Shown here: positions 5,235 through 64,000 of the stretch, in pieces | Layout: each line of letters starts with the position of its first letter | How positions within the stretch are numbered: position 1 is the first letter of the stretch | DNA from: an uncultured bacterium | GTDB taxonomy: Bacteria > Acidobacteriota > Thermoanaerobaculia > Multivoradales > JAHZIX01 | NCBI GenBank assembly: GCA_965368975.1 | Contig: CBDUPA010000016.1 | Span: 32,001 to 96,000, forward strand | Direction of reading: 5' to 3' | Length of the DNA stretch: 64,000 nucleotides | Notes under the pieces: generated by a model | Seen by the model: only the letters and a program-made list of their open reading frames with translations | Databases searched by the model: none | Told to the model about the DNA's origin: nothing | Position numbers and translations under genes: made by a program

Positions 5235-5857
5235 TCCGCCTGGCTCTGCCCAAAGGACGCAACTTGCAGGTCGCTCTGGCCGCCTTCTCGGCTGCCGGTC
5301 TCGACTTGGGGGCCGAGGATGTGGCGCGCAAGCTTCGCCTCGAAGTGCCCGAGCTGGATCTGGAAGTGCTGCTGCTCAAGGATCCCGACGTGCCGCTCTA
5401 CGTGCAGCACGGAGCCGCCGATTTCGGTGTCGTCGGCACGGACGTGTTGGAAGAAAAGGGCGGCCAGCTGTTGCTGCCGGTGCGCTTTCTCGAGGGCGGC
5501 TGCCGGCTGTCGTTGATCGGTCGTCGAGGGGCCCAACTGCCGCCGCCGGGTGAGCAGGTGCGGCTGGCCACGAAGTACCCCAACATCGCACGCCGGGTGG
5601 TCGACGAGATGGCCTGGAGCGCCGAGATTCTGCGCCTGTCGGGTTCAATCGAGCTGGCGCCGCTGCTCGACCTCGCCGAAGTGGCACTCGACATCGTGCA
5701 GACCGGTCGCACGATCCGTGAGAACCACCTGCAGGAACTGCGCGTGGTGCGCGATGTCGCGCCCTGCCTGGTGCTCAATCCCGCGGCGTTCCAGCGCTAC
5801 CGGCCGCAGTTCAATTCGTGGATCGAGGCCCTCGAGGGCACCGGCTTGGTGGCTTGA
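5231..5857 (+). CDS. hisG: ATP phosphoribosyltransferase, short form
   Basis: ALPKGR, DVPLYV, ATKYP, GSIELAP, DIVQTGRT; 208 aa with no C-terminal regulatory domain. Confidence 0.96.
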   Translation: MIRLALPKGRNLQVALAAFSAAGLDLGAEDVARKLRLEVPELDLEVLLLKDPDVPLYVQHGAADFGVVGTDVLEEKGGQLLLPVRFLEGGCRLSLIGRRGAQLPPPGEQVRLATKYPNIARRVVDEMAWSAEILRLSGSIELAPLLDLAEVALDIVQTGRTIRENHLQELRVVRDVAPCLVLNPAAFQRYRPQFNSWIEALEGTGLVA

Positions 5858-5914: not shown

Positions 5915-7351
5915 ATGAGTACAGATTTCCAGAACACCCCGCAGCAGAGAACTCTGGACCTGAACCTGTTCCCCATCCTCGACGCCGACAGCGCGGAGGG
6001 CCATCAAGCCCTCGACCGTCTGCTCGGCCGCGGCAGCCTGGTGCTCGATGCCGGCTTGCGCAACCGGGCGGCGACGCTGGTCGACACCGTGCGCTCTGGT
6101 GGTGATCGAGCCCTGCTCGACGCCGTGGGTCGTTTCGACCTGCGGGATGTGGAGGACACCGCCGCTGGTGAGGCGCTGAGCTCGGCGGATCTGCGCCTGG
6201 CCCCGCTGCCCCAGGATCGGCCCAACGACGTGGGGGACGACGGCGGTTGGCACGGTCTGCCGGTCGGCTTCGCCGAGGCGCTCGACCGCGCCATCGAGGC
6301 GGTGCGCGCTTTCCACGAACGCCAACTGCACGACGGCTTCCGCATGCAGCGCGAGGGTGTCGAGCTGGTCGAGAACCGATGGCCGCTGCGCCGTGTTGGC
6401 GTCTACGTGCCGGGCGGGCGTGCCAGCTATCCCTCGACTGTCGTCATGACCGTGGTGCCGGCACAGCTGGCTGGCGTCGAAGAGATCGCCGTTGCCACGC
6501 CACCGTCCAGCTACCGCACCATGCCGGCGCTGCGCTACACGCTGGCGCGCCTGGGGGTACACGAGGTGTGGGGGATGGGGGGCGCCCACGCGGTGGCGGC
6601 GCTGGCCTACGGTACCGAGAGCGTGCGCCGGGTCGACAAGATCGTCGGCCCGGGTAACGCCTGGGTGACCGCCGCCAAGGCCCTGGTCATGCCCGATGTC
6701 GCGATCGACGGCCTGGCCGGTCCGACGGAAGTGGTGATCGTCGCCGAGGGCGGAGCGGACATCTCCGCCGCCTGGCTGGCCGCCGACCTGCTGGCACAGG
6801 CCGAGCACGACCCGGTCGCGGCACCGGTGCTGATCACCGACAGTCACCAGCTGGCCGAGGCAGTGCGCCTCGAGCTGGCAGGGCAGCTCGCCGAGCTGGC
6901 GACCGCCGAGACCGCGCGCGCGTCGCTGCGTCACTTCGGCACTGCGCTGGTGGTGCGGGATCTCGACACCCAGGCGCTCGACCTGGTCGAGCGCATCGCC
7001 CCCGAGCATCTGCAGTTGATCGGCCCGCGGCCTGAAGCTCTGGCCGAGCGCGTGCGCAACGCGGGCGCCGTGTTCGTCGGTGCCAGCACGCCCGAGGTCT
7101 TCGGTGACTACGTCGCGGGTCCGAGCCACGTGCTGCCCACCTGCGGTAGCGCGCGCTACGCCTCCGGCCTGGGCGTCGAGGACTTCGTGCGCCGCAGTCA
7201 CGTCGTGCGTTTCGATGCCGAGGCCGCCGCCCAATGGGCCGAGGCTGCCGCTATCCTGGCCGACGCCGAGGGCTTGCCGGCGCATGCCGCCGCCGCCCGC
7301 CGGAGGGCGGGCAAAGACGATACCCACGCCCGCCGGAGGGCGGAGTCATGA
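5915..7351 (+). CDS. hisD: Histidinol dehydrogenase
   Basis: YVPGG..YPST, GPGNAWVTAAK, AGPTEV, QAEHD, APEHL, GDYVAGPSHVLPT. Confidence 0.97.
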   Translation: MSTDFQNTPQQRTLDLNLFPILDADSAEGHQALDRLLGRGSLVLDAGLRNRAATLVDTVRSGGDRALLDAVGRFDLRDVEDTAAGEALSSADLRLAPLPQDRPNDVGDDGGWHGLPVGFAEALDRAIEAVRAFHERQLHDGFRMQREGVELVENRWPLRRVGVYVPGGRASYPSTVVMTVVPAQLAGVEEIAVATPPSSYRTMPALRYTLARLGVHEVWGMGGAHAVAALAYGTESVRRVDKIVGPGNAWVTAAKALVMPDVAIDGLAGPTEVVIVAEGGADISAAWLAADLLAQAEHDPVAAPVLITDSHQLAEAVRLELAGQLAELATAETARASLRHFGTALVVRDLDTQALDLVERIAPEHLQLIGPRPEALAERVRNAGAVFVGASTPEVFGDYVAGPSHVLPTCGSARYASGLGVEDFVRRSHVVRFDAEAAAQWAEAAAILADAEGLPAHAAAARRRAGKDDTHARRRAES

Positions 7352-8448
7352 GCTGGCAGATCGGCGACGATCCCAGCTCCTTGGTGCGCCCCGAGCTGCG
7401 CGAGCTGTCCCTCTACCACCTGGACCAGCAGCCCTATCGCTGGAAACTCGACCAGAATGAAGTTCCCTGGGACCTGCCGCGCCGGCTCAAGGAGCGCGTC
7501 GTCCGGCAGTTGGTCGAGCGCAGCTGGGCCACCTATCCGGACTTCCACGGCGACGAACTGCGGACCGCCCTGGGGCGGCGCTACGACTGGCCGACCGAAG
7601 GGGTGCTGGTGGGCAACGGCTCGAACGAGCTGCTGGGTCTGATACTGGAAGCCCTCGACACCTCCCGCGGCGGTGCGGCGGCGAACGGCGAGATCCTGAG
7701 CCTGCTGCCCGGCTTCAGCCTCTACCGCATGCTCACCCTGCGGGCGGGCAGAACCCCTCGATTCCTCGGGCCGGCAAGCGACCTCGGCTTGCCCCTGGCC
7801 GAGTTGCGAGCCGAGATCGAACGCGATCCGCACAGGCCGGTGATCCTGTGCAGTCCCAACAATCCCACCGGCTCCGCGGCGACCGTCGAGCAGGTCGACG
7901 CACTGCTGCAGCGGTTGCGGGCCCCGCTGCTGCTCGACAACGCCTACGGCGAGTTCTGCCGCCACGACTACCGCCCCTTGCTCGATCGGCATCCACACCT
8001 GATCTTGCTGCGAACCTTCTCCAAAGCCTGGTCCCTGGCCGGCATGCGCTTGGGGTATCTGCTCGCCGATCCGGGCCTGGTGCGGGAGCTGATCAAGGTC
8101 AAGCTGCCCTACAACCTGAGTCACGCCGGCGTGCTCGCCGCGCTCGCGGTGCTCGAGGAGCCTCGGCACGCCGAGCGCGCCGTGGACGCCATCCTACGTC
8201 GACGGGAGCAGTGGGCCGACTTACTGCGTGGTGCCGGGCTTCGGGTCTATCCGTCCGAGGCCAACTTCCTGCTCGTCGACTGTGGTCCTCGCGCGGCCAG
8301 CCTGCGCCAAGGCCTGGCCGAGCGGGGCATCCTGGTGCGCGACGTCAGCACCTATCACGGCCTCGCCGGCTGTCTGCGCTTCGCCATCGGCAGCGGCGGC
8401 GCCCTGCGAGCCACCCGCCGTGCTTTGGCGCAACTGGCATCAACCTGA
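7348..8448 (+). CDS. hisC: Histidinol-phosphate aminotransferase
   Basis: LDQNE, GNGSNE, CSPNNPTG, RTFSKAWSLAGMRLG (PLP lysine); start moved to ATG 7348, which overlaps the hisD stop. Confidence 0.95.
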   Translation: MSWQIGDDPSSLVRPELRELSLYHLDQQPYRWKLDQNEVPWDLPRRLKERVVRQLVERSWATYPDFHGDELRTALGRRYDWPTEGVLVGNGSNELLGLILEALDTSRGGAAANGEILSLLPGFSLYRMLTLRAGRTPRFLGPASDLGLPLAELRAEIERDPHRPVILCSPNNPTGSAATVEQVDALLQRLRAPLLLDNAYGEFCRHDYRPLLDRHPHLILLRTFSKAWSLAGMRLGYLLADPGLVRELIKVKLPYNLSHAGVLAALAVLEEPRHAERAVDAILRRREQWADLLRGAGLRVYPSEANFLLVDCGPRAASLRQGLAERGILVRDVSTYHGLAGCLRFAIGSGGALRATRRALAQLAST

Positions 8449-9166: not shown

Positions 9167-9829
9167 ATGATGTCCAGTCCCTCTCGACGCAGAGTCACCG
9201 TCATCGACGCCGGCGTCGGCAACCTCGGCAACTTGGTGCGCGCGCTCGAACACCTCGGTGCGGAAGTGCGCGTCAGCGAAGATCCGTGGGAAGTGCGCGC
9301 CGCCCGCTGCCTGGTGCTGCCCGGCGTCGGTGCCTTCCGACCGCCGCGCGAAACCCTGACCAAGAAACGCCTCGAGAGCGCCCTGCGCGGGGCACTCGAC
9401 CGGGGCGCCTGGCTGCTCGGTGTGTGCGTGGGCTTCCAACTGCTGTTCGAGGCGAGCGAAGAGTTCGGCGTCACGGACGGTCTCGGCCTCCTGCCCGGTC
9501 GTATCGAGCGTCTCCCCAGCAACGTGCCGCTACCGCACATCGGTTGGAATCGCTTGCACGGCCTGGTGCAGCATCCCCTGCTCAACGGTGTGCATCCCGA
9601 CGATCTCGACGCCGATCCCTACGTCTACTTCGTGCACAGCTTTGCTCCTGCCGACGTGCCGGCGACCCTGACTCTCGCCAGTTGCACGCACGGCCGCGAG
9701 TTCCCGGCCGTTGCCGGCTACGGCCGCGTGCTGGGCACCCAATTCCACCCCGAGAAGAGCGGCCAGGTCGGCCTGCGCCTGCTCGCCAACTACCTGGAGA
9801 TGGCCCATGGAACTGCTGCCGGCGATTGA
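9167..9829 (+). CDS. hisH: Imidazole glycerol phosphate synthase, glutaminase subunit
   Basis: LPGVGAF, GVCVGFQ, PHIGWN, YFVHSF, QFHPEKS; start at ATG 9167 after GAGGA. Confidence 0.96.
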   Translation: MMSSPSRRRVTVIDAGVGNLGNLVRALEHLGAEVRVSEDPWEVRAARCLVLPGVGAFRPPRETLTKKRLESALRGALDRGAWLLGVCVGFQLLFEASEEFGVTDGLGLLPGRIERLPSNVPLPHIGWNRLHGLVQHPLLNGVHPDDLDADPYVYFVHSFAPADVPATLTLASCTHGREFPAVAGYGRVLGTQFHPEKSGQVGLRLLANYLEMAHGTAAGD

Positions 9830-51412: not shown

Positions 51413-53074
51413 CTACTCGTCCGGCAGCTCCAGTAGCTTGCGCAAGCGCCCGCGCGCCCACAGCTTCAAAGGCAGCTGGGCGGCCTCCGGCAGATCCAGA
51501 TCCTCGAAGCTCTGCTTGGCGACGAGCATCAGCTGCTCGCACAGCTGGAGGCGTATCTCTTCGTCGGTGTTGGCGATGGTGAACTCGTTCGGCGGAACAG
51601 GGGGCGGTCCCGGCTCCGCGGGCGCTCCGAAGGCGGCGAGAGCGCGCGGAAAGTGCTCGTCCAGGATCTTGGGAACGTCGCGCCGGGCCATGAACTCGCC
51701 GACGGCGAAGTCGTGCTGGCGCAGTTTCTTATCAAAGAAGCCGAGCAGGCCGAAGAACTCCTCGCCCGCCAGCTCGTCCGGGTCGGCGCCGACCAGGCCC
51801 AAGCGCAGGTCGGCTTTGTTCTGCAGGCCCGCGGCATTGTTCAGGACGAAGGTGCATAGATGGAAGATTCTTCGTTTATCTGCGCTCTCGCCTGCAATAT
51901 GTGCGGCTGTCTGGAGTTTCACTTGACGATCCTGCAGTTTCAGGCTGTTCTCTAGGTAGTCCTCGGGATAGCGTGTGAGGCCGAACAACTGGCGCTTGTG
52001 CTCGACGATGTCGCCCGCCAGCTGCCCCAGGCCCTCGAGCAGTTGCAGGTCGGTTTCCGCCGAGCTGCCGGCGATCAGGTGGGCGAGCTGCTCGCTCAGG
52101 CCGTCGCGCCAGTCGAGTTCCTGGTTACGCCGGCACACGCGCAGCCACTCGCGCGCCAGGCTCTGGTCGCGGATCACCGAGGCGATGCGCCGGAGCTGGT
52201 CGGGCAGGCTCGACTCGGAGTTCAGCTCCGGGTCGTGGCGCGACGAGTCGAGCTTGGGGTCGACGAGCAGGAACAGGCGTCGATCGTCCGGGCCTCCGTC
52301 GGCCTCGCGCGCCAGCCGGATCGCCTCGCCCAGGGGCTTGTTGTCGAACAGGCCACCGTCGATGAACGCCAGGCCCTGCTGCAGTAGCTCCAGGTTGTCC
52401 ACTTCGCGCGCGCCTGGATAGTCGTCGACGTTGCGGGCCAGCGTCTGCGGTTGGAAGGCGATCGGCAGGTTGGCGCATGCCATGGCGGCGTTGCCGACGC
52501 GGTGCCAGTCGGTGTCCTCGGGCGCGTCGCGCCGCACCAGGAAGTGGGCCACGTCCTTGAACACCGTGGTCACGAAGTTGCGCCCCTTGCCGCGGCCGAT
52601 CGGCAGGAAGGGCAGCTCGTAGGTCATGCCCTGCAGGTTGCTCAGCGTCATGCCCAGGCGCAGCAGCTCGGGCGTGCAGGAGAACGGTCCGCCGTTGCCG
52701 GGCAGCACTGCCTCCGGGCCGCGCAGCAGTCCTGCTTGCAAGATCTGCTCGATGATCTTCTTGGAGAAGGCCGCGTTCTTCGGCGGATCGGTGAGCAGGT
52801 GGCGGACGTCGATGTCGCGCACCCAGGAGCGATACAGCGGATTGCGCTCCGGCTGCTCGTTCGGGGCCGGTCCATCCTGCAGGTAGCGCGCGGTCAACGC
52901 TCCGACTACGCCGCCCGCCGAGGCGCCGGTGATGATGTCGATCTCGAAGTGGTGCGGACCTTCGGCATTGCGCTGTTCCAGCTGCCGCAGCAGCTCGGTG
53001 ACGACGCCGGATTCGAAGGCTCCCAGCGAGCCGCCGCCGGCCAGGATGAGCGCGATCTTGTGGGTATGGGGCAT
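51413..53074 (-). CDS. Patatin-like phospholipase (paralog of the neighbour)
   Basis: GGGSLG, GASAG, DGGLFDN; start set at ATG 53074 after AGGA. The longer 978-aa ORF extension overlaps menE and is not credible. Confidence 0.9.
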   Translation of the reverse strand: MPHTHKIALILAGGGSLGAFESGVVTELLRQLEQRNAEGPHHFEIDIITGASAGGVVGALTARYLQDGPAPNEQPERNPLYRSWVRDIDVRHLLTDPPKNAAFSKKIIEQILQAGLLRGPEAVLPGNGGPFSCTPELLRLGMTLSNLQGMTYELPFLPIGRGKGRNFVTTVFKDVAHFLVRRDAPEDTDWHRVGNAAMACANLPIAFQPQTLARNVDDYPGAREVDNLELLQQGLAFIDGGLFDNKPLGEAIRLAREADGGPDDRRLFLLVDPKLDSSRHDPELNSESSLPDQLRRIASVIRDQSLAREWLRVCRRNQELDWRDGLSEQLAHLIAGSSAETDLQLLEGLGQLAGDIVEHKRQLFGLTRYPEDYLENSLKLQDRQVKLQTAAHIAGESADKRRIFHLCTFVLNNAAGLQNKADLRLGLVGADPDELAGEEFFGLLGFFDKKLRQHDFAVGEFMARRDVPKILDEHFPRALAAFGAPAEPGPPPVPPNEFTIANTDEEIRLQLCEQLMLVAKQSFEDLDLPEAAQLPLKLWARGRLRKLLELPDE

Positions 53075-53160
53075 GGTCTGGTTCCTGTCGAAGACGGGGT
53101 TCCGGTCGGAGGTTCGAGTTGGAACGTCGGATCCGCTGGCCGGGTCCGGGCGTTCGGAAG

Positions 53161-54705
53161 TCACGGTCGGGCGTCTGACGCGGGCGAGGTACCCAGGTGC
53201 CGCAAGTATGCACGCGTCTGGACCGCCGCCTCGCGACGGTCGATCTTGCCCGTTGCGTTGACGGGCAGCGCCTGCACATAGGCAACGCGCCGAGGGCGCT
53301 TGAAGCGGGCCAGCTGAGTTTCTAGGAAGTTTAGCAGGTTCTCGTCTGTGGGTTCTTCCGGCGCCACCAGCGCCGCCGCCACCACCTCGCCCCACTCCGC
53401 GTCGTCGACCCCGAACACGCACGCCGCCGTGATCGCCGGATGCGCCAGCAGCGCCGCTTCGACCTCGGCCGGATGCACGTTCTCGCCGCCGCTGATGATC
53501 AGCTCCTTGGCGCGCCCCAGCAGGTGCAGCCGGCCGTGCGCGTCGAGACGTCCCAGGTCGCCCGTGCGCAGCCAGCCATCGTCGGTGAAGGCGGAGCGAT
53601 CGAGGCCCGCAGCCGTGGTAGCAGTCGCGGGCGTCCAATACCCGTCCATCAGCGTCCCTCCCGCCACCTGCACCTCGCCGTCGACGATGCGCACCCCGAC
53701 TCCGTCGAGCGGCGGTCCGACGCCCGCGTCCGTCGCGTTCTCGTCGAGCGAGCGATAGCGCTGCGTCGTCACCTGCGCGCAGGCTTCGGTCAAACCATAC
53801 GTCGCGAGCACCGGCACACCACGCTGCCGAGCCTCGTCGAGCAAGCCCGCCGGCGTCGCCGCTCCGCCCACCAGCACCGCGCGCAGCGACGGCGGAGGCG
53901 TCCAGTCGGGCAGCTTGAGCAGCCGTCGTAGCATCGTCGGCACCAGCGACATCAAGGTCACCCCTTGCTGCTTGACCACCGCCGCCACCGCGTCCGCGCG
54001 TCCCGCGTCCGTTCGCTGCATCACCACTGTCCGGCGCGCGACCAGGCAGCGCGTCAGCACCGACAATCCTCCCACGTGCCCGATCGGCAACCCGAGCCAC
54101 CAGCGATCGCCGTCGATCCAGCCCAGGTTCTCCGCGCTGGCGTTGGCGGCGGCGAGAAAGGCACGCCGGCTGAGCACCGCGATTTTCGGCTCGCTGGTGG
54201 TGCCGGAGGTGAAGAGGAGGGCGAGGGGGGAATGGAGATCGGGTCTGGTTCTGGGTAGGGGCAGGCCCATGCGGTCGGCGCCCCGATGCCTGCCCTCCGG
54301 GGTTTGGGCGGGAGAAGAAGCGGATGCGGCTTCGCCGCAGGGCACCCACATGGGGGTGCCCCTACCCAGATAAGACGTCTCGGCCAACATCGCCACCCGC
54401 CGCGCCCGTTCGGCCTCTGTCCACCTCGGATGCAGCAACGCCAGCGGATGCCCCAGCTCGATCAGCGCATAGATCCGCACCAGTACCCCCGGCCGTAGCT
54501 CACCGACCACCGGCACGACCGGCGGCAAGTCCTCGCCCCGCAGAGCCGCGATCTCACCGCGCACCGCCTCGGCGACGCGCGCGTACGTCCACACCTCGCC
54601 GTCCTTACTGGCGTCCCCGAAGAGCCACGCCGGACGCTCGGGCACCTCCTCGGCGGCGCGCAGGATCGACAGCGCCGCGTCGTCCTGCTTGGTCACGGAA
54701 TCCAT
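53161..54705 (-). CDS. menE: AMP-dependent acyl-CoA ligase, o-succinylbenzoate-CoA ligase-like
   Basis: FTSGTT, LPIGHVGGL, TYGLTE, RTGDLG, ISGGENVHP, TGKIDR; contains an in-frame REP insertion; no other men genes in the window. Confidence 0.6.
   Translation of the reverse strand: MDSVTKQDDAALSILRAAEEVPERPAWLFGDASKDGEVWTYARVAEAVRGEIAALRGEDLPPVVPVVGELRPGVLVRIYALIELGHPLALLHPRWTEAERARRVAMLAETSYLGRGTPMWVPCGEAASASSPAQTPEGRHRGADRMGLPLPRTRPDLHSPLALLFTSGTTSEPKIAVLSRRAFLAAANASAENLGWIDGDRWWLGLPIGHVGGLSVLTRCLVARRTVVMQRTDAGRADAVAAVVKQQGVTLMSLVPTMLRRLLKLPDWTPPPSLRAVLVGGAATPAGLLDEARQRGVPVLATYGLTEACAQVTTQRYRSLDENATDAGVGPPLDGVGVRIVDGEVQVAGGTLMDGYWTPATATTAAGLDRSAFTDDGWLRTGDLGRLDAHGRLHLLGRAKELIISGGENVHPAEVEAALLAHPAITAACVFGVDDAEWGEVVAAALVAPEEPTDENLLNFLETQLARFKRPRRVAYVQALPVNATGKIDRREAAVQTRAYLRHLGTSPASDARP
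54250..54370. repeat. REP doublet, in-frame inside the MenE-like gene
   Basis: 14-bp perfect terminal inverted repeat TCTGGGTAGGGGCA...TGCCCCTACCCAGA; contains TGCGGCTTCGCCGCA hairpin. Confidence 0.85.
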
Positions 54706-54750
54706 GGCCGCATTGTACGGCGTGCGTCTACGTCATCGGCGACGCTTCTT

Positions 54751-55695
54751 CTACGCCTTCGGCAGGGCTTCCGACAGCGTCTTGCCACCCTTGATGCCGA
54801 AATCGAGCGTGCGGATCGGGAACGGAATGACGATGCCGTTGGCGTCGTACGCCTTCTTGATCGCCAGGATCGCGTCGCTCGCCGCGTGCGCCCGGTCGCC
54901 TTCGCGCTGGTAGGAGATCCAGAAGCGCACCTGCAGGTTGATCGAGCTGTCCCCGAACTCCGTGAACACCACCTCCGTCTCGGTGTCCTGCAGCCGCCGC
55001 TCCAGGCCATCGACTGCGTCCCGGGTCACCCGCGCCACCGTCTCGAGATCCTCCGCGTACGACACCCCTATTGCCAGGTCGACCCGCCGCCGCTTGGTGG
55101 CGGAGAGGTTGACGAGGGTCTGCTCGTACACTTCCTTGTTCGGAATCAGCACCAGCTGGCCTTGCTGCGTCAGCACGTGCGTGGTGCGCAGATTGATCTC
55201 CTGCACCGTCCCGAACTGCCCTGCCGCCTCGATGATGTCGCCCGGCACGAACGGCTTGCGTAGCGAGATCAGGGTGCCGGAGAGGAAGTTGGCGATGATG
55301 TTCTGGAAGGCAAAGCCGATCGCCAGCCCCAGCACGCCGGCACCGGCCAGCAGCGAGGTCACCGCCTTGTCCAGCTGCAACACCCCGAGCGCCACGAACA
55401 GCCCCGTCGTCAGCACCGCGAAACGCGCTACGCGCTCGGTCAGCTTGACCAGTGTCCGGTTGTCCGCGAAGCGCCGGAACACCCGGCGGATCGACGCACC
55501 GACGAAGCGGGAAGCGATCCAGAACAGGAGCATCACCAGCACTGCCACCACCAGGTTGGGCAGCATGCTGATCAGCTTCTCCAGCCAGTCGTGGAGCTTG
55601 CTGAGAACCAGGTCGACGGGCTGCTCCAGCGAGTCTGTTGCTCGATCAGCAACAGCGGCGGCATCTTCGAGCACGTCTTGGGCCTGCATGACCAT
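54751..55695 (-). CDS. mscS: Small-conductance mechanosensitive channel
   Basis: LLAGAGVLGLAIGFAFQNIIANF, PFVPGDII, GTVQEINLRTT, IPNK, FGDSSIN, IPFP; start uncertain. Confidence 0.9.
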   Translation of the reverse strand: MVMQAQDVLEDAAAVADRATDSLEQPVDLVLSKLHDWLEKLISMLPNLVVAVLVMLLFWIASRFVGASIRRVFRRFADNRTLVKLTERVARFAVLTTGLFVALGVLQLDKAVTSLLAGAGVLGLAIGFAFQNIIANFLSGTLISLRKPFVPGDIIEAAGQFGTVQEINLRTTHVLTQQGQLVLIPNKEVYEQTLVNLSATKRRRVDLAIGVSYAEDLETVARVTRDAVDGLERRLQDTETEVVFTEFGDSSINLQVRFWISYQREGDRAHAASDAILAIKKAYDANGIVIPFPIRTLDFGIKGGKTLSEALPKA

Positions 55696-55758
55696 GGAGT
55701 CTAACATGCGGTCAGTGCAGGGCTTGAGGGGCCTCAAGCAGCAGAGCGGCGGCGGGGA

Positions 55759-56199
55759 TCACGCCACCGTGGGCAGAGAAGGCACACTCGATCCCAGCCG
55801 CCGCGAAAGATGCCCCGCGATCTGCTGTGCCCGCTGCACAAAGATCTCCGCCGCCGTCCCGGAGGTCTCCTCGTGCACCGTCGCGCTGAACAGCTCCAGC
55901 CAGCGGCCCCAGAGTTCTGGTGGTAGGTGCCCGAGTGCTCGGTGCTTGGGCAGAGGCTGGCCTTGATAGCGTTTCGAGGACAGCAAGATGGTGGACCAGA
56001 AGTCCACCATGGTTTCCAGGTGTTGGGACCAGTGGTCGGCCAGGTGCGGTTCGAACACGGGGCCGAGAAGGTCGTCGCCGCGCACCTTGGCGTAGAAGCT
56101 GTGCACCACGGCGCCGATGGCGGCTTCGCTGGGGAGTTGCTCTGCGTTGGCGCTAGGGGCCGGAGATTCCGGTTGGGGATGCGTCGAGTGTGCTTGCAT
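55759..56199 (-). CDS. Group III truncated hemoglobin
   Basis: VHSFYAKVRGDDLLGPVF, WSQHLETMVDFWS, YQGQPLPKH, RWLELF. Confidence 0.9.
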   Translation of the reverse strand: MQAHSTHPQPESPAPSANAEQLPSEAAIGAVVHSFYAKVRGDDLLGPVFEPHLADHWSQHLETMVDFWSTILLSSKRYQGQPLPKHRALGHLPPELWGRWLELFSATVHEETSGTAAEIFVQRAQQIAGHLSRRLGSSVPSLPTVA

Positions 56200-56250
56200 C
56201 GCGGCAGACCTCTGGATTCGAGTTGGGAGCTAGAGGCTGGGGGTTGAGGT

Positions 56251-56297
56251 CGGGGTGGGGGCAGCTCCATGCGGCCGGCGTCCCGGTGGCTGCTCTC
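56251..56297. repeat. Degenerate intergenic copy of the REP family
   Basis: GTGGGGGCAGCTCCATGCGGCCGGCGTCCCGGTGGCTGCTCT shares TGCGGCCGGCGTCCCGGTGG with the copy at ~30669-30688. Confidence 0.6.
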
Positions 56298-56303
56298 CGC
56301 TCT

Positions 56304-56546
56304 CTAAGCTGCGACCCGGGCGCGCTGGTATAGGAATTCCGGGGCGAAATCGGCGCCGTTGGGCCAAGTCACGGTGTGCAGTTCGGGATGGACTTGGAAC
56401 TGGCGAAAGACCGTCGGATCCTTCAGCGGCTCGAACATCGGGCCGTACAGTTCGTCGGTCAGGTCGACCTGGCCTTCGCTGCCGTCGTTGAAGCGGAGGA
56501 GAAGGGTGTAGGCGTCGAGGTGGTGGGCTTCGGTGACACGGATCAT
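56304..56546 (-). CDS. DUF2442-family protein (putative antitoxin)
   Basis: 80 aa; LLLRFNDG..VDL..L.GPMFEPLKD...F....TVTWPNGADFAPEFLY. Confidence 0.85.
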   Translation of the reverse strand: MIRVTEAHHLDAYTLLLRFNDGSEGQVDLTDELYGPMFEPLKDPTVFRQFQVHPELHTVTWPNGADFAPEFLYQRARVAA

Positions 56547-56550
56547 GGCT

Positions 56551-56808
56551 TTACTCCAAAGGTTCGACCGGGAGAAGTGGCTCCCTAGCTCTGGCACGTT
56601 GCCAGTTGGATTCCAACTCGGCTTGGTGAAGCTTGTACCATTCCAGAACAAGTTTCAACGCACGGCGCGGAAACTTACCGTTGACGTTGCCACTTCCAAT
56701 GTCGACTGTGATTTCATACTCCCCATACTTCGCATGGAAATGGGGCGGAGAATGATCGCGGTAGTACATGGCAATGAGAATGCCGAGGAAACGGCTTATT
56801 TCGGGCAT
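56551..56808 (-). CDS. DUF4160-family protein (putative toxin partner)
   Basis: 85 aa; MPEISRFLGILIAMYYRDHSPPHFHAKYGE...LVLEW...HQAELESNW. Confidence 0.88.
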   Translation of the reverse strand: MPEISRFLGILIAMYYRDHSPPHFHAKYGEYEITVDIGSGNVNGKFPRRALKLVLEWYKLHQAELESNWQRARAREPLLPVEPLE

Positions 56809-56890
56809 CCTTGAACTCCTTGATGGGCTGAGGTCCTTGCCTGCGAATGAGTATCTCACGGTCGAGATTTGATTTTAGTGAGGCTGCAAA

Positions 56891-59800
56891 ATGCTTGATC
56901 CAATAACTCTGACGATTGTAACCGGAGCTGCGGGCAATCTCGCAGCGGCGGCTGTTGCTTACTCTGCGGGCAAGATCAAGGAGCGTTTTGACCGAGACGC
57001 TGCACTCGAGCGGGCTTTGAATTCTTGCTGCCAGGCTGGTTTGACTGCCTTGATTCTCAGTGCCAAGCAGCAGGTGCCACAGTTCGACGATGTTGTCGAG
57101 CTTGGGTTTCGGGAGGCTCTCGAAGGCGAGAAGCTCATAGATGGCTTCGGGTCTCGCTTGCGCCGGGTCCTGCGCGGCAAGTCTCTGGAAGTCGATGACA
57201 TGGCCGATCTCTTCCAAGATCATGGGTTCGACCTTTCGAAGGTCCCAGGTCTGGATCTGGAGGTCAGCTTCCGCGAGTTCGAGGCGGTGTTTCTCGAGAG
57301 AGCTGTACAGGAAGACATCCTTCGCAAGGAAGCAGAGGCGTACCAGAGTCGCAAACGAACGCAGCTTCTGGAGCGGGTCGTTGAGTTGCTGGAGGCGGGG
57401 CAGAAGACGATAGTTGAGTCTTCGCAGCCACGTCAGAACACAGATGCAAAGCAGGCCCACGACCGCTATCTCGAACGCCTGATTCGCGACTGCCAGGGGC
57501 TGGCCTTAGCGGAGCTGGGTGGACAAGGTGATGCGACATCGAAGGTCAAGTTGGACGATGTGTATGTGGATCTGCTGACGAAGAGCCGCATCGAGCTGAC
57601 GCCGGAGGAGAAGAAGGAACGTCGCTCTCGCCACAAGAAGGACCGCCCTCTCACGGCCTTGGAAGCAACGGCCCAGACTCCGCACCTCGTCTTGCTCGGT
57701 GATCCCGGCAGTGGCAAGAGTTCGTTCGTTCGCCATCTGACGGCGCGACTGGCGCGAGCACGCCTGGACGGAGCGGAAGCGTACGAGGGCACCCGCGACC
57801 TGCTGCCGATCTTCGTCATTCTGCGGCGCCTGGTGCCTCACCTGCGGAACCTGAAGCTGAAGGGCTTGACGAAGGATCGGCGCCAGCCGCTCTTGCTCGA
57901 TGCGCTGAAGGAAACTGTCCTGGAGTTCGTGGGCGAATGTGATGCTAAAGCATTCGGGGAGGCGGCACGGGATGCCCTGGTGGACGGCAAGTGCTTCTTG
58001 GTGCTGGACGGCCTGGACGAGGTGCCGACGGACCTTCGCCCGGCAGTCGCGGAGACGGTGGCGGCAGCGGTGGAGAAGTATGCCTTGCCGCGGGTGATCG
58101 TCACCTGCCGCGTGCGGTCCTACCAGAGCGGTGCCGTACTGACCGGCTTCCAGGACCACGAACTCGCGCCCTTCACGAAGGAGCAGGTACAGCGTTTCGT
58201 GGCGGGTTGGTACGGGGCGCAGCAGCGGCACGGGCACGTGACCTCTGCTGAGGCCAAGGAGCGCACGGAAGATCTCCAGCAGGCGGCCGGTGGGCTGCAC
58301 GAACTGGCGCAGAATCCGATGCTGCTGACCACGATGGCACTGATTCATCAGCAGAACATCGGCCTGCCGCGCCAGAAGGTGTTGCTGTACGACGAGGCGG
58401 TGAAGGTGCTGCTGGTGCGCTGGCAGAAGCGCATTGGATTTGCCGGGGCCGTCTCGGGAGAACTGGCCGAGGTGCTGCAAGATGCGACGCGGATCCGGCC
58501 GGTATTGGAACGGTTGGCGTTTGAGGTGCACTTGGCCGAGGAGGCGGATGCTGCAGCGGAAGAGCAGGGCGAAATGTCGGGGCTGGACTGGGGGCGGATC
58601 GTCCAGATCTTGAAGGAAGACAAGTACCTCGGCTCGACCTCACTGGCAGAGGCGTTCCTCGACTACGTGGACCAGCGCGCCGGGATCTTGGTGGGACGAG
58701 GGGGTGGTCCGGGCGAGCCGCTACGCTACAGCTTCCCGCATCGGACCTTCCAGGAGTACCTGGCCGGCTGCTACTTGGTCGCCGAAACGGACGATGCCGT
58801 GGGCGCGGTATACGAGCGGGCAGCAGCCGGGGACTTCTGGTACCTGGCGGTGCAGCTGGGAGCGGAAGAGTTAGTCTACAGTCGGCGCTTTCCGTCCTTG
58901 GTCCAGCGGCTGGCGCTGGGCCTGTACCCGTCGGGTGGCAAGCGAGATGAGTCGGCGCGGCGGGCGAGCCTGTGGGCTACTTGGATGGCGACGCTGCTGG
59001 AGGCGCAGCCGGGCGGGGTGGCGAGCAGCGGACCGGAGAGCTGGAAGAGCTTTCTAGGCCGGTGTCGGAAGCGGCTATGTGCGCTGCTGGGCAAGGGGCT
59101 GCCTGTGCGGGAGCGAGTGGAGGTGGGACGGTTGTTGGCCAAGCTCGGAGACCCGCGGCCGGAGGTGATGACGGTGGAGGGGATGGAGTTCTGCCGCGTG
59201 CCGGCGGGGCCGTTCTGGATGGGCAGTGATGACTCGGACGAGCTTGCCTTCGGTGATGAGAAGCCGATCACACGGCAAGAGGTGAACTACGACTACTGGA
59301 TGGCGCGCTACCCAGTGACGCAAGCTCAGTTCCGGCTGTTCGTGGAGGCCGGCGGTTACCGGGACTACCGCTACTGGTCGGAAGCCCAGGCCGCCGAGCG
59401 CTGGATGGCGGAGACTGGGTTCGATCGGCGACAGGGGCCGGTCTCGTACGGAGAGCGCTTCGACTTGTCGAATCACCCGGTTGTCGGGGTGAGTTGGTTC
59501 GAGGCGTTGGCGTTCACGCGTTGGCTGACGGCGGAGTACCGCGAACGAGGCTGGCTGCCGGATGGTTGGTGCATCTCTCTGCCCTCGGAGTTGGAGTGGG
59601 AGAAAGCGGCCCGTGGCGGGGAGCAGGTGCTCGTATCTGCGCTTGGTGAGGGTATTGAAATGGTGCAAGGGTGGATCTGTAAAGCACTTCAGGCCGAGCA
59701 GCAAGAGAACCCGGAACCTCGCCGGTTCGTTCCGTGGACGGGTGGTTTCGAAGCGGATCGGCTGAACTGGAGTGGGCAGCGGCTAGGCGCAACGTCGGCA

Positions 59801-60109
59801 CCGGGGCTGTTCCCGAAAGGCAGCAGCCCGGTGGGCTGCGAGGAGATGTGCGGCAACGTCTGGGAGTGGACGCGCAGCATCTGGGGCGAGGTCCCTTATC
59901 CTACAGCCGCTGCGGATCGACGAGATAGAGAGGATTTTTCGAATTCAAGCGAGTTCCGCGTCTGGCGTGGCGGTTCGTTCGCCGACTATCGGCAAGGCGT
60001 GCGCTGCGCCTACCGCTACAGGGGTCCTCCGGACTTCCAGTTCTTCGACGTGGGTTTTCGTGTTGCGCTCCTCCCGTTATCTCTGAACTCTGAAGACTCT
60101 GAACTCTGA
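56891..60109 (+). CDS. NACHT/STAND NTPase with C-terminal FGE-sulfatase (CLec-fold) domain; DGR target protein
   Basis: Walker A GDPGSGKSS, Walker B LVLDGLDE, NPMLLT, FPHRTFQEYLA; FGE motifs FWMGS, YPVTQAQF, HPVVGVSW, LPSELEWEKAARG, GNVWEWT, RGGSF..GFRV; VR at the 3' end. Confidence 0.95.
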   Translation: MLDPITLTIVTGAAGNLAAAAVAYSAGKIKERFDRDAALERALNSCCQAGLTALILSAKQQVPQFDDVVELGFREALEGEKLIDGFGSRLRRVLRGKSLEVDDMADLFQDHGFDLSKVPGLDLEVSFREFEAVFLERAVQEDILRKEAEAYQSRKRTQLLERVVELLEAGQKTIVESSQPRQNTDAKQAHDRYLERLIRDCQGLALAELGGQGDATSKVKLDDVYVDLLTKSRIELTPEEKKERRSRHKKDRPLTALEATAQTPHLVLLGDPGSGKSSFVRHLTARLARARLDGAEAYEGTRDLLPIFVILRRLVPHLRNLKLKGLTKDRRQPLLLDALKETVLEFVGECDAKAFGEAARDALVDGKCFLVLDGLDEVPTDLRPAVAETVAAAVEKYALPRVIVTCRVRSYQSGAVLTGFQDHELAPFTKEQVQRFVAGWYGAQQRHGHVTSAEAKERTEDLQQAAGGLHELAQNPMLLTTMALIHQQNIGLPRQKVLLYDEAVKVLLVRWQKRIGFAGAVSGELAEVLQDATRIRPVLERLAFEVHLAEEADAAAEEQGEMSGLDWGRIVQILKEDKYLGSTSLAEAFLDYVDQRAGILVGRGGGPGEPLRYSFPHRTFQEYLAGCYLVAETDDAVGAVYERAAAGDFWYLAVQLGAEELVYSRRFPSLVQRLALGLYPSGGKRDESARRASLWATWMATLLEAQPGGVASSGPESWKSFLGRCRKRLCALLGKGLPVRERVEVGRLLAKLGDPRPEVMTVEGMEFCRVPAGPFWMGSDDSDELAFGDEKPITRQEVNYDYWMARYPVTQAQFRLFVEAGGYRDYRYWSEAQAAERWMAETGFDRRQGPVSYGERFDLSNHPVVGVSWFEALAFTRWLTAEYRERGWLPDGWCISLPSELEWEKAARGGEQVLVSALGEGIEMVQGWICKALQAEQQENPEPRRFVPWTGGFEADRLNWSGQRLGATSAPGLFPKGSSPVGCEEMCGNVWEWTRSIWGEVPYPTAAADRRDREDFSNSSEFRVWRGGSFADYRQGVRCAYRYRGPPDFQFFDVGFRVALLPLSLNSEDSEL
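59951..60073 (+). repeat. DGR variable repeat (VR)
   Basis: Aligns ungapped to TR at offset +635; in the 115-bp core, 20 of 22 mismatches fall at TR adenines. Confidence 0.95.
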
Positions 60110-60134
60110 ATCTCTGATCTGGCAAAGGGGGAGC

Positions 60135-60156
60135 CCGAGGGGGCTTGCCCCCTCGG
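60135..60156. other. GC-rich hairpin downstream of VR (DGR homing hairpin/cruciform candidate)
   Basis: CCGAGGGGG-CTTG-CCCCCTCGG, perfect 9-bp stem with 4-nt loop, 25 nt after the target stop codon. Confidence 0.75.
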
Positions 60157-60181
60157 AGGATTGTGGTATCTTCTGCGCGCA

Positions 60182-60535
60182 ATGAGTCGACCGGAGATGC
60201 CAATCTTCGTCCGTAGCTTCGATTTCTTGACTTGGTTATTGCCTCTTACCAATCACTTTCCACGTGCCCACCGGCACACAGTTACGCAGCGTCTCCTGAA
60301 TGCTGCCTTCGATCTACGAGAGTGCCTGGAAGCAGCGAACACGCGGCTGGGTCCTGAGCGGTTAGAGTTTCTGGTAGAGGCTGATGTCGCGTTGGGGCGA
60401 GTCAGGACCTACTTGAGGCTGGTGGAGAAATGGCAGTGGATATCGCCGGGTCAGTATGAGCACGCGGCGCGAATGGTCGCGGAGATCGGCAGGCTCCTCG
60501 GAGGTTGGAAGAAGACAGTCTTGCCTCGAACTTAG
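60182..60535 (+). CDS. avd: DGR accessory variability determinant (Avd, four-helix bundle)
   Basis: 117 aa from ATG 60182; PIF..FDFL.WL....FPRAHR....RL, LRL......I...QYEH....[10 protein letters not shown]; lies between VR and TR. Confidence 0.92.
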
Positions 60536-60585
60536 GCGACAGTTCCCGGCGTCTGACGCCGGTTTCTGTGGGGATTCGCCCGAAG

Positions 60586-60708
60586 GAGTTCCGCGTCTGG
60601 CGTGGCGGTTCGTTCGCCAACAATCACAACAACGTGCGCTGCGCCTACCGCAACAGGAATCAACCGAACAACCAGAACAACAACATGGGTTTTCGTGTTG
60701 TTCTCCTC
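60586..60708 (+). ncRNA. DGR template repeat (TR)
   Basis: A-rich copy of VR with 11 AAC/AAT codons, intergenic between avd and RT; flanked by hairpins (60546-60562 and ~60721-60739). Confidence 0.95.
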
Positions 60709-60842
60709 ACATTCTCCGATCGCCGGAACTTCCTGGCGGGTCTCCGACCTTTCAGGCCGAGGCGGAAAATGGCGGGGTGGGTTCCCGGCCGCATCCGGGC
60801 AATGTACACAACTGAGCCTTGCTCGGATCGGGCATATAGGTA

Positions 60843-61958
60843 GTGGCTCCGCCTCCTGGCTCCGGCCTGAGGCGGGGCGAGTTCGCCTCGGAGTTCGACC
60901 ACCTTATCGAGTGGTCGAATCTACGCCTCGCCTACCGCAAGGCCAGCAAGGGCAAGCGCGGCCGGTCCGATGTGGCCGCATTCGAGCTGTGCCTCGAAGA
61001 TAACCTCTTGGACCTGCAAGCCGACCTGCAAGCCAGAACCTATCGCCCCGGCGGCTATCGAAGTTTCTTTATCCACGAGCCAAAACGTCGGCGCATCAGT
61101 GCCGCACCGTTTCGGGATCGCGTAGTGCACCACGCGCTGTGCAACGTGATCGAGGAGCGCTTCGAACGCTCGTTTGTTTCTGAGAGTTTCGCCAACCGAG
61201 TTGGCAAGGGTACCCATCGAGCGCTCGAACACGCCCAAGACTGTGCGCAGCGATTCCGTTTCGTCGTCCAACTCGACATCCGGCAGTTCTTCCCCAGCAT
61301 CGATCACGAGATTCTGTTCGCGTTGCTGCGGCGGAAGATCGAAGACTCCGCAGTGCTCTGGTTGATCGGGCTGATCCTGGCCTCGGGAGAGGGAGTGCTG
61401 GCGGACGAGTACGATCAGGTCTTCTTTCCGGGTGATGATCTGTGGGCTGCGTTGCGACCGAGGGGCTTGCCCATTGGCAACTTGACCAGTCAGTTCTGGG
61501 CCAATGTCTACATGAGCGGTCTGGATCACAAGATCAAGCGGCAGCTGCGTTGCCGGGGGTATGCACGCTACGTAGACGACCTGCTCTTGTTCTCGAACAG
61601 CAAGCGTGAGCTGTGGATGTGGAAAGGGGCGCTGGGGGCGGAGCTGGAGCGCTTGAGGCTGAAGGTTCATCCCGGCGTGCAACCACGGCCGGTGCCAGAA
61701 GGTGTTCCGTTTTTGGGCTTCGTGATCTATCCGCACAAGCGCCTGCTCAAGCGGCGCAAGGCGGTGCACTACCGGCGACGTTTGCGGGGCAAGCTGAGGG
61801 CCTCGACTCAGGCAGAAGAGCCGTTGCGGCAGAGCGTGCAATCGTGGTTGAATCATTGCCGATACGGGAACACGTTTCATTTGTGTGCGAAGCTCCTGGC
61901 GGAGGCTGGAGTTAGCTGCGAGTTGTGGCCGGAGGAACTGGCCGCCCATGATCTGTGA
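60843..61958 (+). CDS. DGR reverse transcriptase
   Basis: EPKRRRISAAPFRDRVVHHAL, GKGTH, LDIRQFFPSIDH, GLPIGNLTSQFWANVY (DGR-type SQ), RYVDD, FLGF; start codon uncertain. Confidence 0.95.
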   Translation: MAPPPGSGLRRGEFASEFDHLIEWSNLRLAYRKASKGKRGRSDVAAFELCLEDNLLDLQADLQARTYRPGGYRSFFIHEPKRRRISAAPFRDRVVHHALCNVIEERFERSFVSESFANRVGKGTHRALEHAQDCAQRFRFVVQLDIRQFFPSIDHEILFALLRRKIEDSAVLWLIGLILASGEGVLADEYDQVFFPGDDLWAALRPRGLPIGNLTSQFWANVYMSGLDHKIKRQLRCRGYARYVDDLLLFSNSKRELWMWKGALGAELERLRLKVHPGVQPRPVPEGVPFLGFVIYPHKRLLKRRKAVHYRRRLRGKLRASTQAEEPLRQSVQSWLNHCRYGNTFHLCAKLLAEAGVSCELWPEELAAHDL

Positions 61959-62010
61959 GGGTAAGTTGTTCGAATTCGTTTACTAACGATTGAGTCTTCA
62001 AGAGGTTCAC

Positions 62011-64000
62011 ATGACGGACCCTTTTTCCAGCATTCTGATCGGCGCCGCCGGTAACGTCACCGCCGGTCTGATTTCCTCCTCCATCGGTGAAGTCGGGGCG
62101 TGGCTCAAGGGAGATGCGGAGCGCGAAGCGGCGCTGAACCGAGCTACACAGACGGGACTGGCCGCCCTCCTGGTCAAGGCCAAGGGGCAGGCCCCGGACC
62201 TGTCCGATCACGTCGAGACTGCCTTCCAGCTGCCCTTGCGCCATCCGGACCTGATGGCGGATCTCGGTAAGCTGCTGCAGGTGGCGCTGCGCGGCCGAGA
62301 GTTCGACAGCGAGACCGGAGCACGCCTGTTCAGGGAATACCAGTTCGATCTCGCGGATCTACCGGGCCTCGACCTGCAGGAGTGCTTGCGCGAGCTAGAG
62401 GCGGCGTTCATCGAGACCGCTGACCGCCAGGAGGTCCTGCAGACCGAACTGCTGACCTTCCACGCCCGCCGGCACTCGCAGTTGCTGGAGGAGGCTGTGG
62501 CGCTGCTGCGGCGCATCGGAACGGCGCCTGCGGGGCTCGCTGGTGCGGCGGACGCAGAGACGACGCGTCAGTTGTACCTCCAGCAACTGGCGAGGCATTG
62601 CCAGGCGCTGCCGTTGGCCGAGCTGGGTGGCAAGGGGCAGGGGTTGACCAAGGTGCGGCTTGGCGATGTCTTCATCGAGCTGAACACCCAGACGCGGATC
62701 CCGCGGACGCCGGAAGAGAAGAAGGTCTTCGAAGAAGAGCACGGCTACCCCTCGGATGATCGCCTACTGACCGCCGAGCAGGCCGCGGACCGGCACCCGC
62801 AGCTGGTGCTGCTGGGCCACCCCGGTAGCGGCAAGAGTTCGTTCATCCGGCATCTGGTGGCACGGCTGGCGGCTCCGGGGCCGGCTGCCCCCGCACCGCC
62901 GTGGGCGGAGGGATTGCTACCGGTCCTGCTCGTCTTGCGCCATCTGGCGCCCCTCCTCGCCCGGCTCGAGCTTGACTCGCTCGACCTGGAGCAACGGCGG
63001 CAGCGGCTGGGCGAGGCGCTGCAGGCGGCCGTGGTCGAGAGCGCCAGGCTGTGCGGTGCGGAAGCCTTCGGGGAGAGGCTGCGCGAGGCTCTGATCAGCG
63101 GCCGCTGCCTGCTGGTCCTGGACGGGCTGGACGAGGTGCCGGCGAAGCTGCGACCGATCGTCCGGCGCGCGGTTGAGGCCGCGCTGCAAACCTACAGCCT
63201 CGCCCGCGTGATCGTGACCTGTCGGGTCCATTCCTACCAGGGCCGGGCGCAGCTGCCGGACTTCACCGTCCACGAACTGATGCCGCTGACTTCCGGCCAG
63301 GTCGAGCGCTTCGTAGAGGTGTGGTACCACGCCCGCCACCTCCACGGGTATGTCACCGCGGCGGAGGCCGAAGAGCGGGCCGAAGACTTGAAGCGCGGGG
63401 CGCGGGGCCTGCTTCAGCTGGCGGACAATCCGATGCTGCTGACCACGATGGCCCTGGTCCACCAGCAGAATATCCGGCTGCCGCCGCAGAAGGTCTGTCT
63501 CTACCACGAAGCGGTCAAGGTGCTGCTGGTGCGCTGGCAGGAAAGCAAGGGGCTGATCCGGGAACTGGCTCCGCGGCTGGTCGAGATCCTGAACGAGGAC
63601 GGCCGCATCCGCCCGGTGCTGGAGCGGCTGGCCTTCGAGATCCACCGCAGGGAGCAGGAGGTGGGTGAGAGCGAGGAGTCCGGCCTGGAATGGGAGCGGA
63701 TGCTCAAGATTCTCAAGGCACCGGTGTACCTGGGTTCGACATCCCTGGCGGAGGCCTTCCTGGAGTACGTCGATCAGCAGGCCGGGATTCTGGTGGGTCG
63801 CGGTGGGGGACCGGACGACGCGTTGCGCTACAGCTTCCCGCATCGCACCTTCCAGGAATACCTGGCTGGCTGTTATCTGGTCAGCCAGTCGGAACCGGTG
63901 ACGGAGATCTATCAGCAAGCGGCGGCCGGCGACTTCTGGTACCTACCCGTGCAGCTGGCGGCGGAAGAACTGCTGCACAACCGCCGAGTTCCTCAATTCC
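62011..64000 (+). CDS. Second NACHT paralog, 3'-truncated by the window edge (likely second DGR target)
   Basis: Not in the ORF track because it has no stop in the window. ATG 62011 after GAGG; MTDPFSSILIGAAGN..., GHPGSGKSS, LVLDGLDE, NPMLLTTMALVHQQNI, YSFPHRTFQEYLAGCYL all in one frame. Confidence 0.9.
   Translation, partial: MTDPFSSILIGAAGNVTAGLISSSIGEVGAWLKGDAEREAALNRATQTGLAALLVKAKGQAPDLSDHVETAFQLPLRHPDLMADLGKLLQVALRGREFDSETGARLFREYQFDLADLPGLDLQECLRELEAAFIETADRQEVLQTELLTFHARRHSQLLEEAVALLRRIGTAPAGLAGAADAETTRQLYLQQLARHCQALPLAELGGKGQGLTKVRLGDVFIELNTQTRIPRTPEEKKVFEEEHGYPSDDRLLTAEQAADRHPQLVLLGHPGSGKSSFIRHLVARLAAPGPAAPAPPWAEGLLPVLLVLRHLAPLLARLELDSLDLEQRRQRLGEALQAAVVESARLCGAEAFGERLREALISGRCLLVLDGLDEVPAKLRPIVRRAVEAALQTYSLARVIVTCRVHSYQGRAQLPDFTVHELMPLTSGQVERFVEVWYHARHLHGYVTAAEAEERAEDLKRGARGLLQLADNPMLLTTMALVHQQNIRLPPQKVCLYHEAVKVLLVRWQESKGLIRELAPRLVEILNEDGRIRPVLERLAFEIHRREQEVGESEESGLEWERMLKILKAPVYLGSTSLAEAFLEYVDQQAGILVGRGGGPDDALRYSFPHRTFQEYLAGCYLVSQSEPVTEIYQQAAAGDFWYLPVQLAAEELLHNRRVPQF

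Follow-up and report, generated by a model that had tools for sequence, protein, structure and literature searches.

A probable two-target diversity-generating retroelement flanked by paralogous NLR-like sensor genes in an uncultured Acidobacteriota bacterium

According to the available text of Doré et al. (2024, PMC10907252), diversity-generating retroelements (DGRs) of clade 5D commonly had two targets, each with a STAND NTPase in its centre and a single C-type lectin (CLec) domain. For DGR 3 of Thiohalocapsa sp. PB-PSB1, the same text described duplicated NACHT-CLec targets, the N-terminal extensions of which were uncharacterised, and two STAND-CLec targets were also present in its DGR 6. 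DGR-diversified FGS sensors on NACHT proteins were predicted to be analogues of antigen receptors in the accessible parts of two other studies (Kaur et al. 2020, PMC7159879; Kibby et al., 10.1101/2022.07.19.500537). Here we describe a locus from an uncultured bacterium of the Acidobacteriota that was located at the end of a 64,000-nucleotide stretch of DNA (the window; contig C16:32001-96000) and continued past it. We consider it likely that this locus contained one DGR, made up of the avd gene, a template repeat (TR) and a reverse transcriptase (RT) gene, with a paralogous NLR-like sensor gene on either side, and that the open reading frame (ORF) starting at 62011 was its second target. The assembly comprised 7,125,974 bases in 59 contigs and was 99.3% complete. 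The sequence past the window was read from C16:88000-106000 (referred to as L006), and a window coordinate equals the L006 coordinate plus 55999; positions beyond 64000 are given as window equivalents.

Similar to the clade-5D and Thiohalocapsa DGRs, the locus combined a single RT and TR with two targets, each of which had a central NACHT/STAND NTPase and one C-terminal FGE-type CLec domain carrying a variable repeat (VR). The likeness to clade 5D was one of gene architecture. As in Thiohalocapsa, the N-terminal extension of the targets contained no characterised effector, and there were several DGR loci per genome (on contigs C16 and C15, with a DGR-like locus on C9). In contrast to the Thiohalocapsa loci, all the elements were on one strand in the order target 1, avd, TR, RT, target 2; no protease or WD40 partner was seen in the neighbourhood, and the flanks belonged to a menaquinone-type (men) operon. 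The features of the locus were as follows.

56891..60109, plus strand: target 1, 1072 aa, with NNH2-like, NACHT and FGE (CLec) parts (ORF list; Pfam).
59954..60076, plus strand: VR1, with its core of adenine-site changes at 59983-60076 (TR alignment).
60126..60160, plus strand: conserved element behind VR1, a GC-rich inverted repeat with the hairpin at 60135-60156.
60161..60535, plus strand: avd (accessory variability determinant), a 124-aa ORF (Pfam, NCBIfam).
60589..60711, plus strand: TR, L006 4590-4712, with all 31 adenines within 60619-60711 (three-copy repeat family).
60843..61958, plus strand: DGR reverse transcriptase, 371 aa (PF00078, motifs).
62011..64000 in the window and on to window-equivalent 65202, plus strand: probable target 2, L006:6012-9203, C16:94011-97202, 1063 aa.
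65076-65169 (window-equivalent, past the window), plus strand: VR2, L006:9077-9170, C16:97076-97169.
65220-65254 (window-equivalent, past the window): conserved element behind VR2, with an identical hairpin at 65229-65250, C16:97229-97250.

A first-pass annotation of the window had placed a second NACHT paralogue directly downstream of the RT and expected that, if it remained colinear with the first target, an FGE domain and a second VR would appear 1.0-1.3 kb past the window. Both expectations were borne out. The ORF was open on the plus strand from 61990 (TTG) or 62011 (ATG) to 63999, with no stop codon before the window end; the ATG was preceded by AGAGG at a distance of 8-9 nt and aligned with Met1 of target 1. 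Within the window, its product was colinear with target 1 from residue 1 (BLASTP, 347/673 identities, 52%, E = 0). The stop codon was located at L006:9203 (window-equivalent 65202), 1.2 kb past the window, giving a protein of 1063 aa from the ATG. It matched the NACHT family (PF05729) at residues 265-441 with 28.8 bits (cut-off 26.7) and the FGE-sulfatase family (PF03781) at residues 760-1050 with an E-value of 2.2e-43; the corresponding Pfam values for target 1 were 36.4 bits and 2.7e-46. Thus, the ORF ended neither without an FGE domain nor without a TR-like sequence, as the latter was found 1.08-1.17 kb past the window, with adenine-specific mismatches and followed by the same hairpin as VR1.

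The two paralogues shared 58% of their amino acids and their coding sequences were 66% identical. The near-identical blocks and the diverged N-terminus pointed out by the first-pass annotation were likewise confirmed: NPMLLTTMAL[IV]HQQNI.LP.QKV.LY.EAVKVLLVRWQ and LRYSFPHRTFQEYLAGCYLV were present in both proteins, and the N-terminus was the least conserved region, with 30-42% amino acid identity in the first five windows of 40 codons each and a dN of 0.61 for the module. Both the Walker A (GHPGSGKS) and the Walker B (LLVLDGLDE) motifs of target 2 were intact. An AlphaFold2 model built with 56 homologues in the alignment (pLDDT 88.5, pTM 0.78) showed a helical N-terminal module, a NACHT NTPase, a helical linker and a C-terminal FGE/C-type-lectin domain. 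In Foldseek searches its central part matched NLRC4 (E = 1.9e-09), NOD2 (3.7e-09) and NAIP, and its C-terminus matched EgtB/FGE folds (2.4e-12 to EgtB). Target 2 is a complete and intact NLR-like sensor gene. The cut-offs of catalytic enzyme families were not reached by target 2 (EgtB, 87.7 bits against 360; SenA, 86.2 against 420; PvdO, 34.1 against 500), so that it shares the FGE/EgtB fold yet is not placed in those families. In comparison to the FGE, EgtB and OvsA enzymes, which have the same C-terminal fold, the domain would serve here as a variable binding scaffold.

A direct repeat was present in three copies, namely as the TR and at the 3' ends of both target genes. In an ungapped comparison of the VR2 core with the TR, 22 of the 31 adenines differed but only 4 of the 63 other bases did. 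VR1 likewise had 22/31 adenine mismatches, together with 4/92 mismatches at other bases over the full TR (4/63 in the core). The adenine bias of VR2 was highly significant (Fisher p = 8e-10, calculated on the wider table for L006 4617-4712, 22/31 against 6/67), and there was no indel relative to the TR. VR2 ended 33 nt 5' of the stop codon, inside the PF03781 region (residues 760-1050), whose fold was seen in the model. Sixteen of the 31 adenine sites were changed in both VRs (to the same base in nine cases), six in VR1 only, six in VR2 only and three in neither, and at 14 of the 18 variable codons the two proteins had different residues. The TR contained 18 adenine-bearing codons, 11 of them AAY and none convertible to a stop, allowing for about 10^17 peptide variants.

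Since the adenine bias would also be inherited if a VR was duplicated after it had been diversified, VR2 was tested against the synonymous background. This bears on the possibility that VR2 resembles the TR merely as part of a duplicate of target 1 and was never a DGR substrate, which would be in line with the paralogy of the targets and with the nine identical bases among the 16 sites changed in both VRs. The values of dS (1.07) and dN/dS (0.31) between targets 1 and 2 indicated that target 2 was an old duplicate under purifying selection, and outside the VR only 0.58 of the 562 codons with identical residues had the same third base. However, 27 of the 30 non-adenine third positions of the VR2 core were equal to the TR (binomial p = 1.4e-4 against 0.58), as were 59/63 of all its non-adenine positions, so VR2 took up TR sequence after the genes had duplicated. 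The VR2-TR homology also had a sharp boundary, beginning exactly at the first adenine (65076), while that of VR1 reached 29 nt further 5'. The mismatch frequency of VR2 at non-adenine bases was 4/63 in the core and rose to 11/29 directly upstream (Fisher p = 3.5e-4), where VR1 had 0/29. Moreover, VR2 was equal to the TR at L006 4702-4703 and VR1 was not; therefore, gene conversion from VR1 looks unlikely as the source of the likeness between VR2 and the TR. The 12 adenine sites changed in one VR only also speak against simple inheritance, as does a paralogue on contig C10 that was not a target and showed neither the low mismatch (38/92 at non-adenine bases) nor the hairpin. At the level of sequence comparison, the synonymous-site and boundary tests already contradict an origin of the VR2 pattern by paralogy alone, and we regard it as highly improbable. 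These comparisons instead show that the TR has rewritten VR2 since the genes duplicated, in agreement with the idea of the first-pass annotation that one TR would serve at least two receptors.

The same annotation had proposed a scan of the genome for further VRs. On the 63 non-adenine positions of the TR, the TR itself scored 63/63, VR1 and VR2 59/63 each and the next sequence 41/63. In a BLAST search of the genome with the TR, VR1 and VR2 were the only matches. Both the adenine-tolerant scan and BLAST thus indicated that this TR has exactly two VRs in the assembly. A third paralogue was located on the minus strand at C10:223760-227095 (L007:8761-12096); it encoded 1111 aa with NACHT and FGE-sulfatase domains and was about 51% identical to targets 1 and 2. 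It lacked a TR-like 3' end and the hairpin found behind the VRs, and C10 had no match to the RT or to Avd. Its 38/92 mismatch, the missing hairpin, the 41/63 scan score and the missing RT and Avd ruled it out as another target of this TR, and on these sequence grounds it is an orphan, non-diversifiable copy.

Behind both VRs there was an identical non-coding run of 35 nt. It contained a GC-rich inverted repeat without mismatches, with a stem of 9 bp and a CTTG loop, and the stem started 58-59 nt past the end of the TR homology (58 for VR1). In the whole 7.1-Mb genome this element had exactly two copies, at the two VRs only. Past the end of the TR homology the VRs were alike (74/89) and unlike the TR (48/95). 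Accordingly, VR2 showed the arrangement by which DGR targets are recognised, namely an end of homology, or IMH (initiation of mutagenic homing), and a GC-rich hairpin 3' of the VR. In the accessible text of Guo et al. (2011, PMC3240598), homing of the BPP-1 DGR needs a GC-rich hairpin downstream, which is conserved in other DGRs, and the phage hairpins have GC stems of 7-10 bp and 4-nt loops with a GRNA consensus at 4-34 bp from the VR. The alternative that the present hairpin is an intrinsic terminator was rejected, as inspection of the sequence, carried out with no terminator scan, found no T-run behind either copy. Further GC-rich inverted repeats were observed downstream of target 2 at L006:9276-9295 and about 9390-9420 (window-equivalent about 65275-65420), namely GGGCGCAA-TGCC-TTGCGCCC and a related GGGGCGCAGGGGTCTGCGCCC.

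DGR reverse transcriptases carry [ILV]GxxxSQ as motif 4. The RT of this locus had the motifs IGNLTSQ and YVDD and was thus of the DGR type. Its best solved relative was 8ub7_A (a 328-aa 'Reverse transcriptase', E = 2.3e-53), which we take to be the bRT of BPP-1; a group II intron RT reached 2.8e-22. The Avd protein matched NF033474 (DivGenRetAVD, NCBIfam) with 82.2 bits (cut-off 80) and PF22296 (bAvd) with 67.8 bits (cut-off 40, E = 1.4e-18). In comparison to BPP-1, with its Mtd/VR, TR, Avd and bRT, the locus shared Avd, an IGxxxSQ-type RT, an AAC-rich TR and adenine-specific differences between TR and VR, as well as a CLec-fold gene with the VR at its 3' end and a GC-rich hairpin downstream of the VR. 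It differed in being a cellular locus with two targets, which were cytoplasmic-type NLR-like NTPases rather than a phage tail fibre. Two more RT matches in the genome (C2:335967-336833 and C45:13853-14719) were about 29% identical to the DGR RT over residues 14-304 and were probably copies of another class of retroelement, for example a group II intron.

Two further loci of the genome resembled the one described here. The second DGR, at C15:3500-10300, had an RT on the minus strand (6040-7083, IGAHSSQ), a TR at 7183-7341 and two oppositely oriented NACHT/FGE targets. Its VR_B (8046-8204) was near-perfect (adenines 10/29, other bases 1/130), and its VR_A (about 5584-5722) was decayed, with two indels and mismatches at 14/25 adenines and 15/122 other bases. 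At C9:136000-143500 we found a DGR-like locus with an RT (139482-140531, IGAHSSQ) between two convergent NACHT-FGE ORFs, the 3' ends of which were 83% alike over 225 nt; another inverted repeat of 71 nt flanked the RT. A hairpin (GGCCGGCA/GGGCT loop) was common to one C9 flank and the VR_A flank on C15. No TR was found at the C9 locus, including by blastn-short, and it was therefore not counted as a working DGR.

Several points weigh against the view that both receptor genes at the C16 locus are being diversified. The four core mismatches of VR2 at non-adenine bases were a mild departure from purely adenine-directed change, and VR1 had four as well, at other sites. The hairpins differed from those of BPP-1 and other phage DGRs in their loop (CTTG as opposed to GAAA in particular and GRNA in general) and in their spacing from the VR (58-59 nt as opposed to 4-34 bp). 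As VR2 lacked the 29-nt adenine-free homology on the 5' side, 5' integration of cDNA could be reduced or abolished there, and because the homology stopped at the first adenine, VR2 may be rewritten less efficiently than VR1. There was no direct sign of ongoing diversification of VR2: no public reads were listed for L006:3600-9400, a metagenome scan with the post-VR element as a source of other alleles gave 0 matches, and with no close relative available (best identity 41-42%) alleles could not be compared. With regard to function, a sensor or defence role of target 2 was suggested by family membership and by the literature. In PADLOC, no model matched target 2 or the C10 paralogue, and target 1 had one weak P-loop match. 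The EruA NACHT model of NCBIfam matched target 2 weakly (39.6 bits, cut-off 1000). According to PMC10907252, no CLec-STAND protein has been studied by experiment, and none of the bNACHT/Avs proteins tested so far has a CLec/FGS sensor.

Some of these observations would fit a second target that has become a relic, in which the DGR rewrote VR2 once the genes had duplicated but no longer uses it as a substrate, so that target 2 has a fixed specificity and the element serves target 1 only. The loss of the 5' adenine-free homology (11/29 against 0/29) and the four core mismatches point in this direction. A second target that is used unequally or no longer used also occurs in this genome, as seen from the near-perfect and the decayed VR on C15, and two targets of one locus were unequally diversified elsewhere, according to the accessible portion of Doré et al. 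(PMC10907252). However, the core of VR1 had just as many mismatches at non-adenine bases, VR2 was free of indels, and its third positions still followed the TR at 27 of 30 sites. The hairpin was perfectly kept in a non-coding run of 35 identical nucleotides, although the coding sequences had diverged to 66% identity. Such a relic therefore appears unlikely to us, and we favour a DGR with two current targets.

If both VRs are substrates, the RT-Avd complex would copy the RNA of the TR to cDNA, with random bases inserted opposite adenines, and the mutagenised cDNA would replace VR1 or VR2, with the 3' homology end and the downstream hairpin as guides. Since the cDNA could replace either VR, one TR would rewrite 18 codons (about 10^17 variants) in each receptor independently. 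By analogy with the bacterial NACHT/Avs proteins and published predictions, the variable lectin surface might then bind an invader-derived ligand. Binding would release oligomerisation driven by the NACHT domain, with the output delivered or recruited by the helical module at the N-terminus. In its combination of a putative NNH-family module, NACHT and a C-terminal sensor, the architecture was similar to the 'antigen receptor-type, FGS domain' class of bNACHT/Avs proteins.

The N-terminal module was difficult to assign from the targets themselves. Residues 1 to about 200 of target 2 had no Pfam matches even at E <= 10, and the same was true for target 1 alone. This part was predicted to fold as an all-helical bundle (pLDDT 76.7), for which Foldseek found no PDB match (best E = 0.44) and VIA-align gave a best Z of 5.3, at the noise level of helical bundles. 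However, when homologues with full N-terminal coverage were considered, 9 of the 13 aligned sequences matched NNH2 (PF22734), with a best E-value of 4.7e-10. A profile derived solely from 10 metagenomic homologues, which spans the conserved pre-NACHT stretch near residues 189-205, scored 99.8, 97.0 and 131.9 bits on the N-termini of target 2, target 1 and the C10 paralogue, respectively, compared with at most 12.7 bits for 300 shuffles. The Atlas scores for an NNH2-like N-terminus (0.83-0.89) were treated as leads only, and the Kyte-Doolittle maxima of the first helix (1.2-1.6) were insufficient to establish a transmembrane segment. Judged from these homologous sequences, the module is probably a divergent NNH2-like domain.

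The protein family was widespread in metagenomes, and everything retrieved from outside this genome was only distantly related. Among 8000 scored metagenomic candidates, 254 proteins had E <= 1e-20; outside its own genome identity was at most 45%, and most of them covered about 82% of the query, without this N-terminus. Of 41 genomes searched, made up of its own and 40 relatives, 11 gave matches with E <= 1e-30, and the best one outside its own genome reached 41-42% identity. The species-representative genomes contained only two distant loci, with 31-32% identity. Tandem matches were present in genomes G036 and G011.

The recurrence of such tandem matches, and of paired or duplicated STAND-CLec targets at DGR loci, is consistent with co-assembly of the two diversified receptors, similar to NAIP with NLRC4, so that either variable domain would trigger a common complex. 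The NACHT module was conserved between the paralogues, and the centre of the model matched NLRC4, NAIP and NOD2. Codons 724-763 of target 2 (L006 about 8181-8300) were 93% identical to target 1 in amino acids and 92% in nucleotides, with a synonymous third-position identity of 0.86. This tract is possibly a gene-conversion patch at the linker or HEAT-like 'LGDPR' region before the FGE domain, and it may reflect exchange between the genes. On the other hand, neither protein looks like a dedicated helper, since the sensor and the N-terminal module were complete in both, and the N-terminal modules were their most diverged parts (dN 0.61). Co-assembly, which the first-pass annotation had raised as a possibility, is speculation, and we consider hetero-oligomers unlikely. 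An even bolder and quite improbable extension is a tiered repertoire derived from one ancestral NLR-like gene, in which the unequal 5' homology would give a fast and a slow receptor, possibly co-assembling, and the C10 copy would be the 'frozen' germline memory of a useful variant. The glycine- and alanine-rich first helix of the NNH2-like module would then be a membrane-inserting executioner after oligomerisation, like alpha-1 of the plant CC-NLR resistosomes.

The DGR was part of an island that extended from window position 54700 to 64000 and on to window-equivalent about 66400. In addition to the DGR, the island held a gene for an MscS channel, an unannotated ORF of 146 aa and an overlapping pair of DUF4160 (102 aa) and DUF2442 (115 aa) genes on the minus strand (56304-56859), directly upstream of target 1. 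On both sides (window 53161-54705 and L006:10406-17780) it was flanked by minus-strand genes of the men operon. The upstream side had an AMP-binding menE-like gene, and the downstream side had ECH/menB-like, TPP/menD-like, chorismate-binding, UbiE and HMG-CoA reductase genes. The G+C content was 0.53-0.61 at 56500-57500 and 60000-62000 and 0.62-0.72 in the flanks. This drop, together with the men-operon flanks, suggests that the island was an insertion. A gene for a patatin-like phospholipase (PF01734, E = 8.4e-18) was located on the minus strand at 51413-53170, about 3.7 kb upstream of target 1, with no evidence tying it to the DGR locus.

As DGRs with two STAND-CLec targets have already been described for clade 5D in the available text of PMC10907252, the locus was a further example of a known arrangement and adds no new principle. 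It was, at the same time, a fully assembled and clean case of a DGR with one TR and two receptors acting on NLR-like proteins. It also came with its own internal controls: both targets were held to the TR despite synonymous saturation, the third paralogue was an orphan, and the hairpin was present only at the two VRs. Such loci are candidates for a bacterial counterpart of adaptive antigen receptors, an idea that has already been published. The value of the present locus is that of a tractable test case for homing with unequal 5' homology and for the roles of the hairpin and the NNH2-like module.

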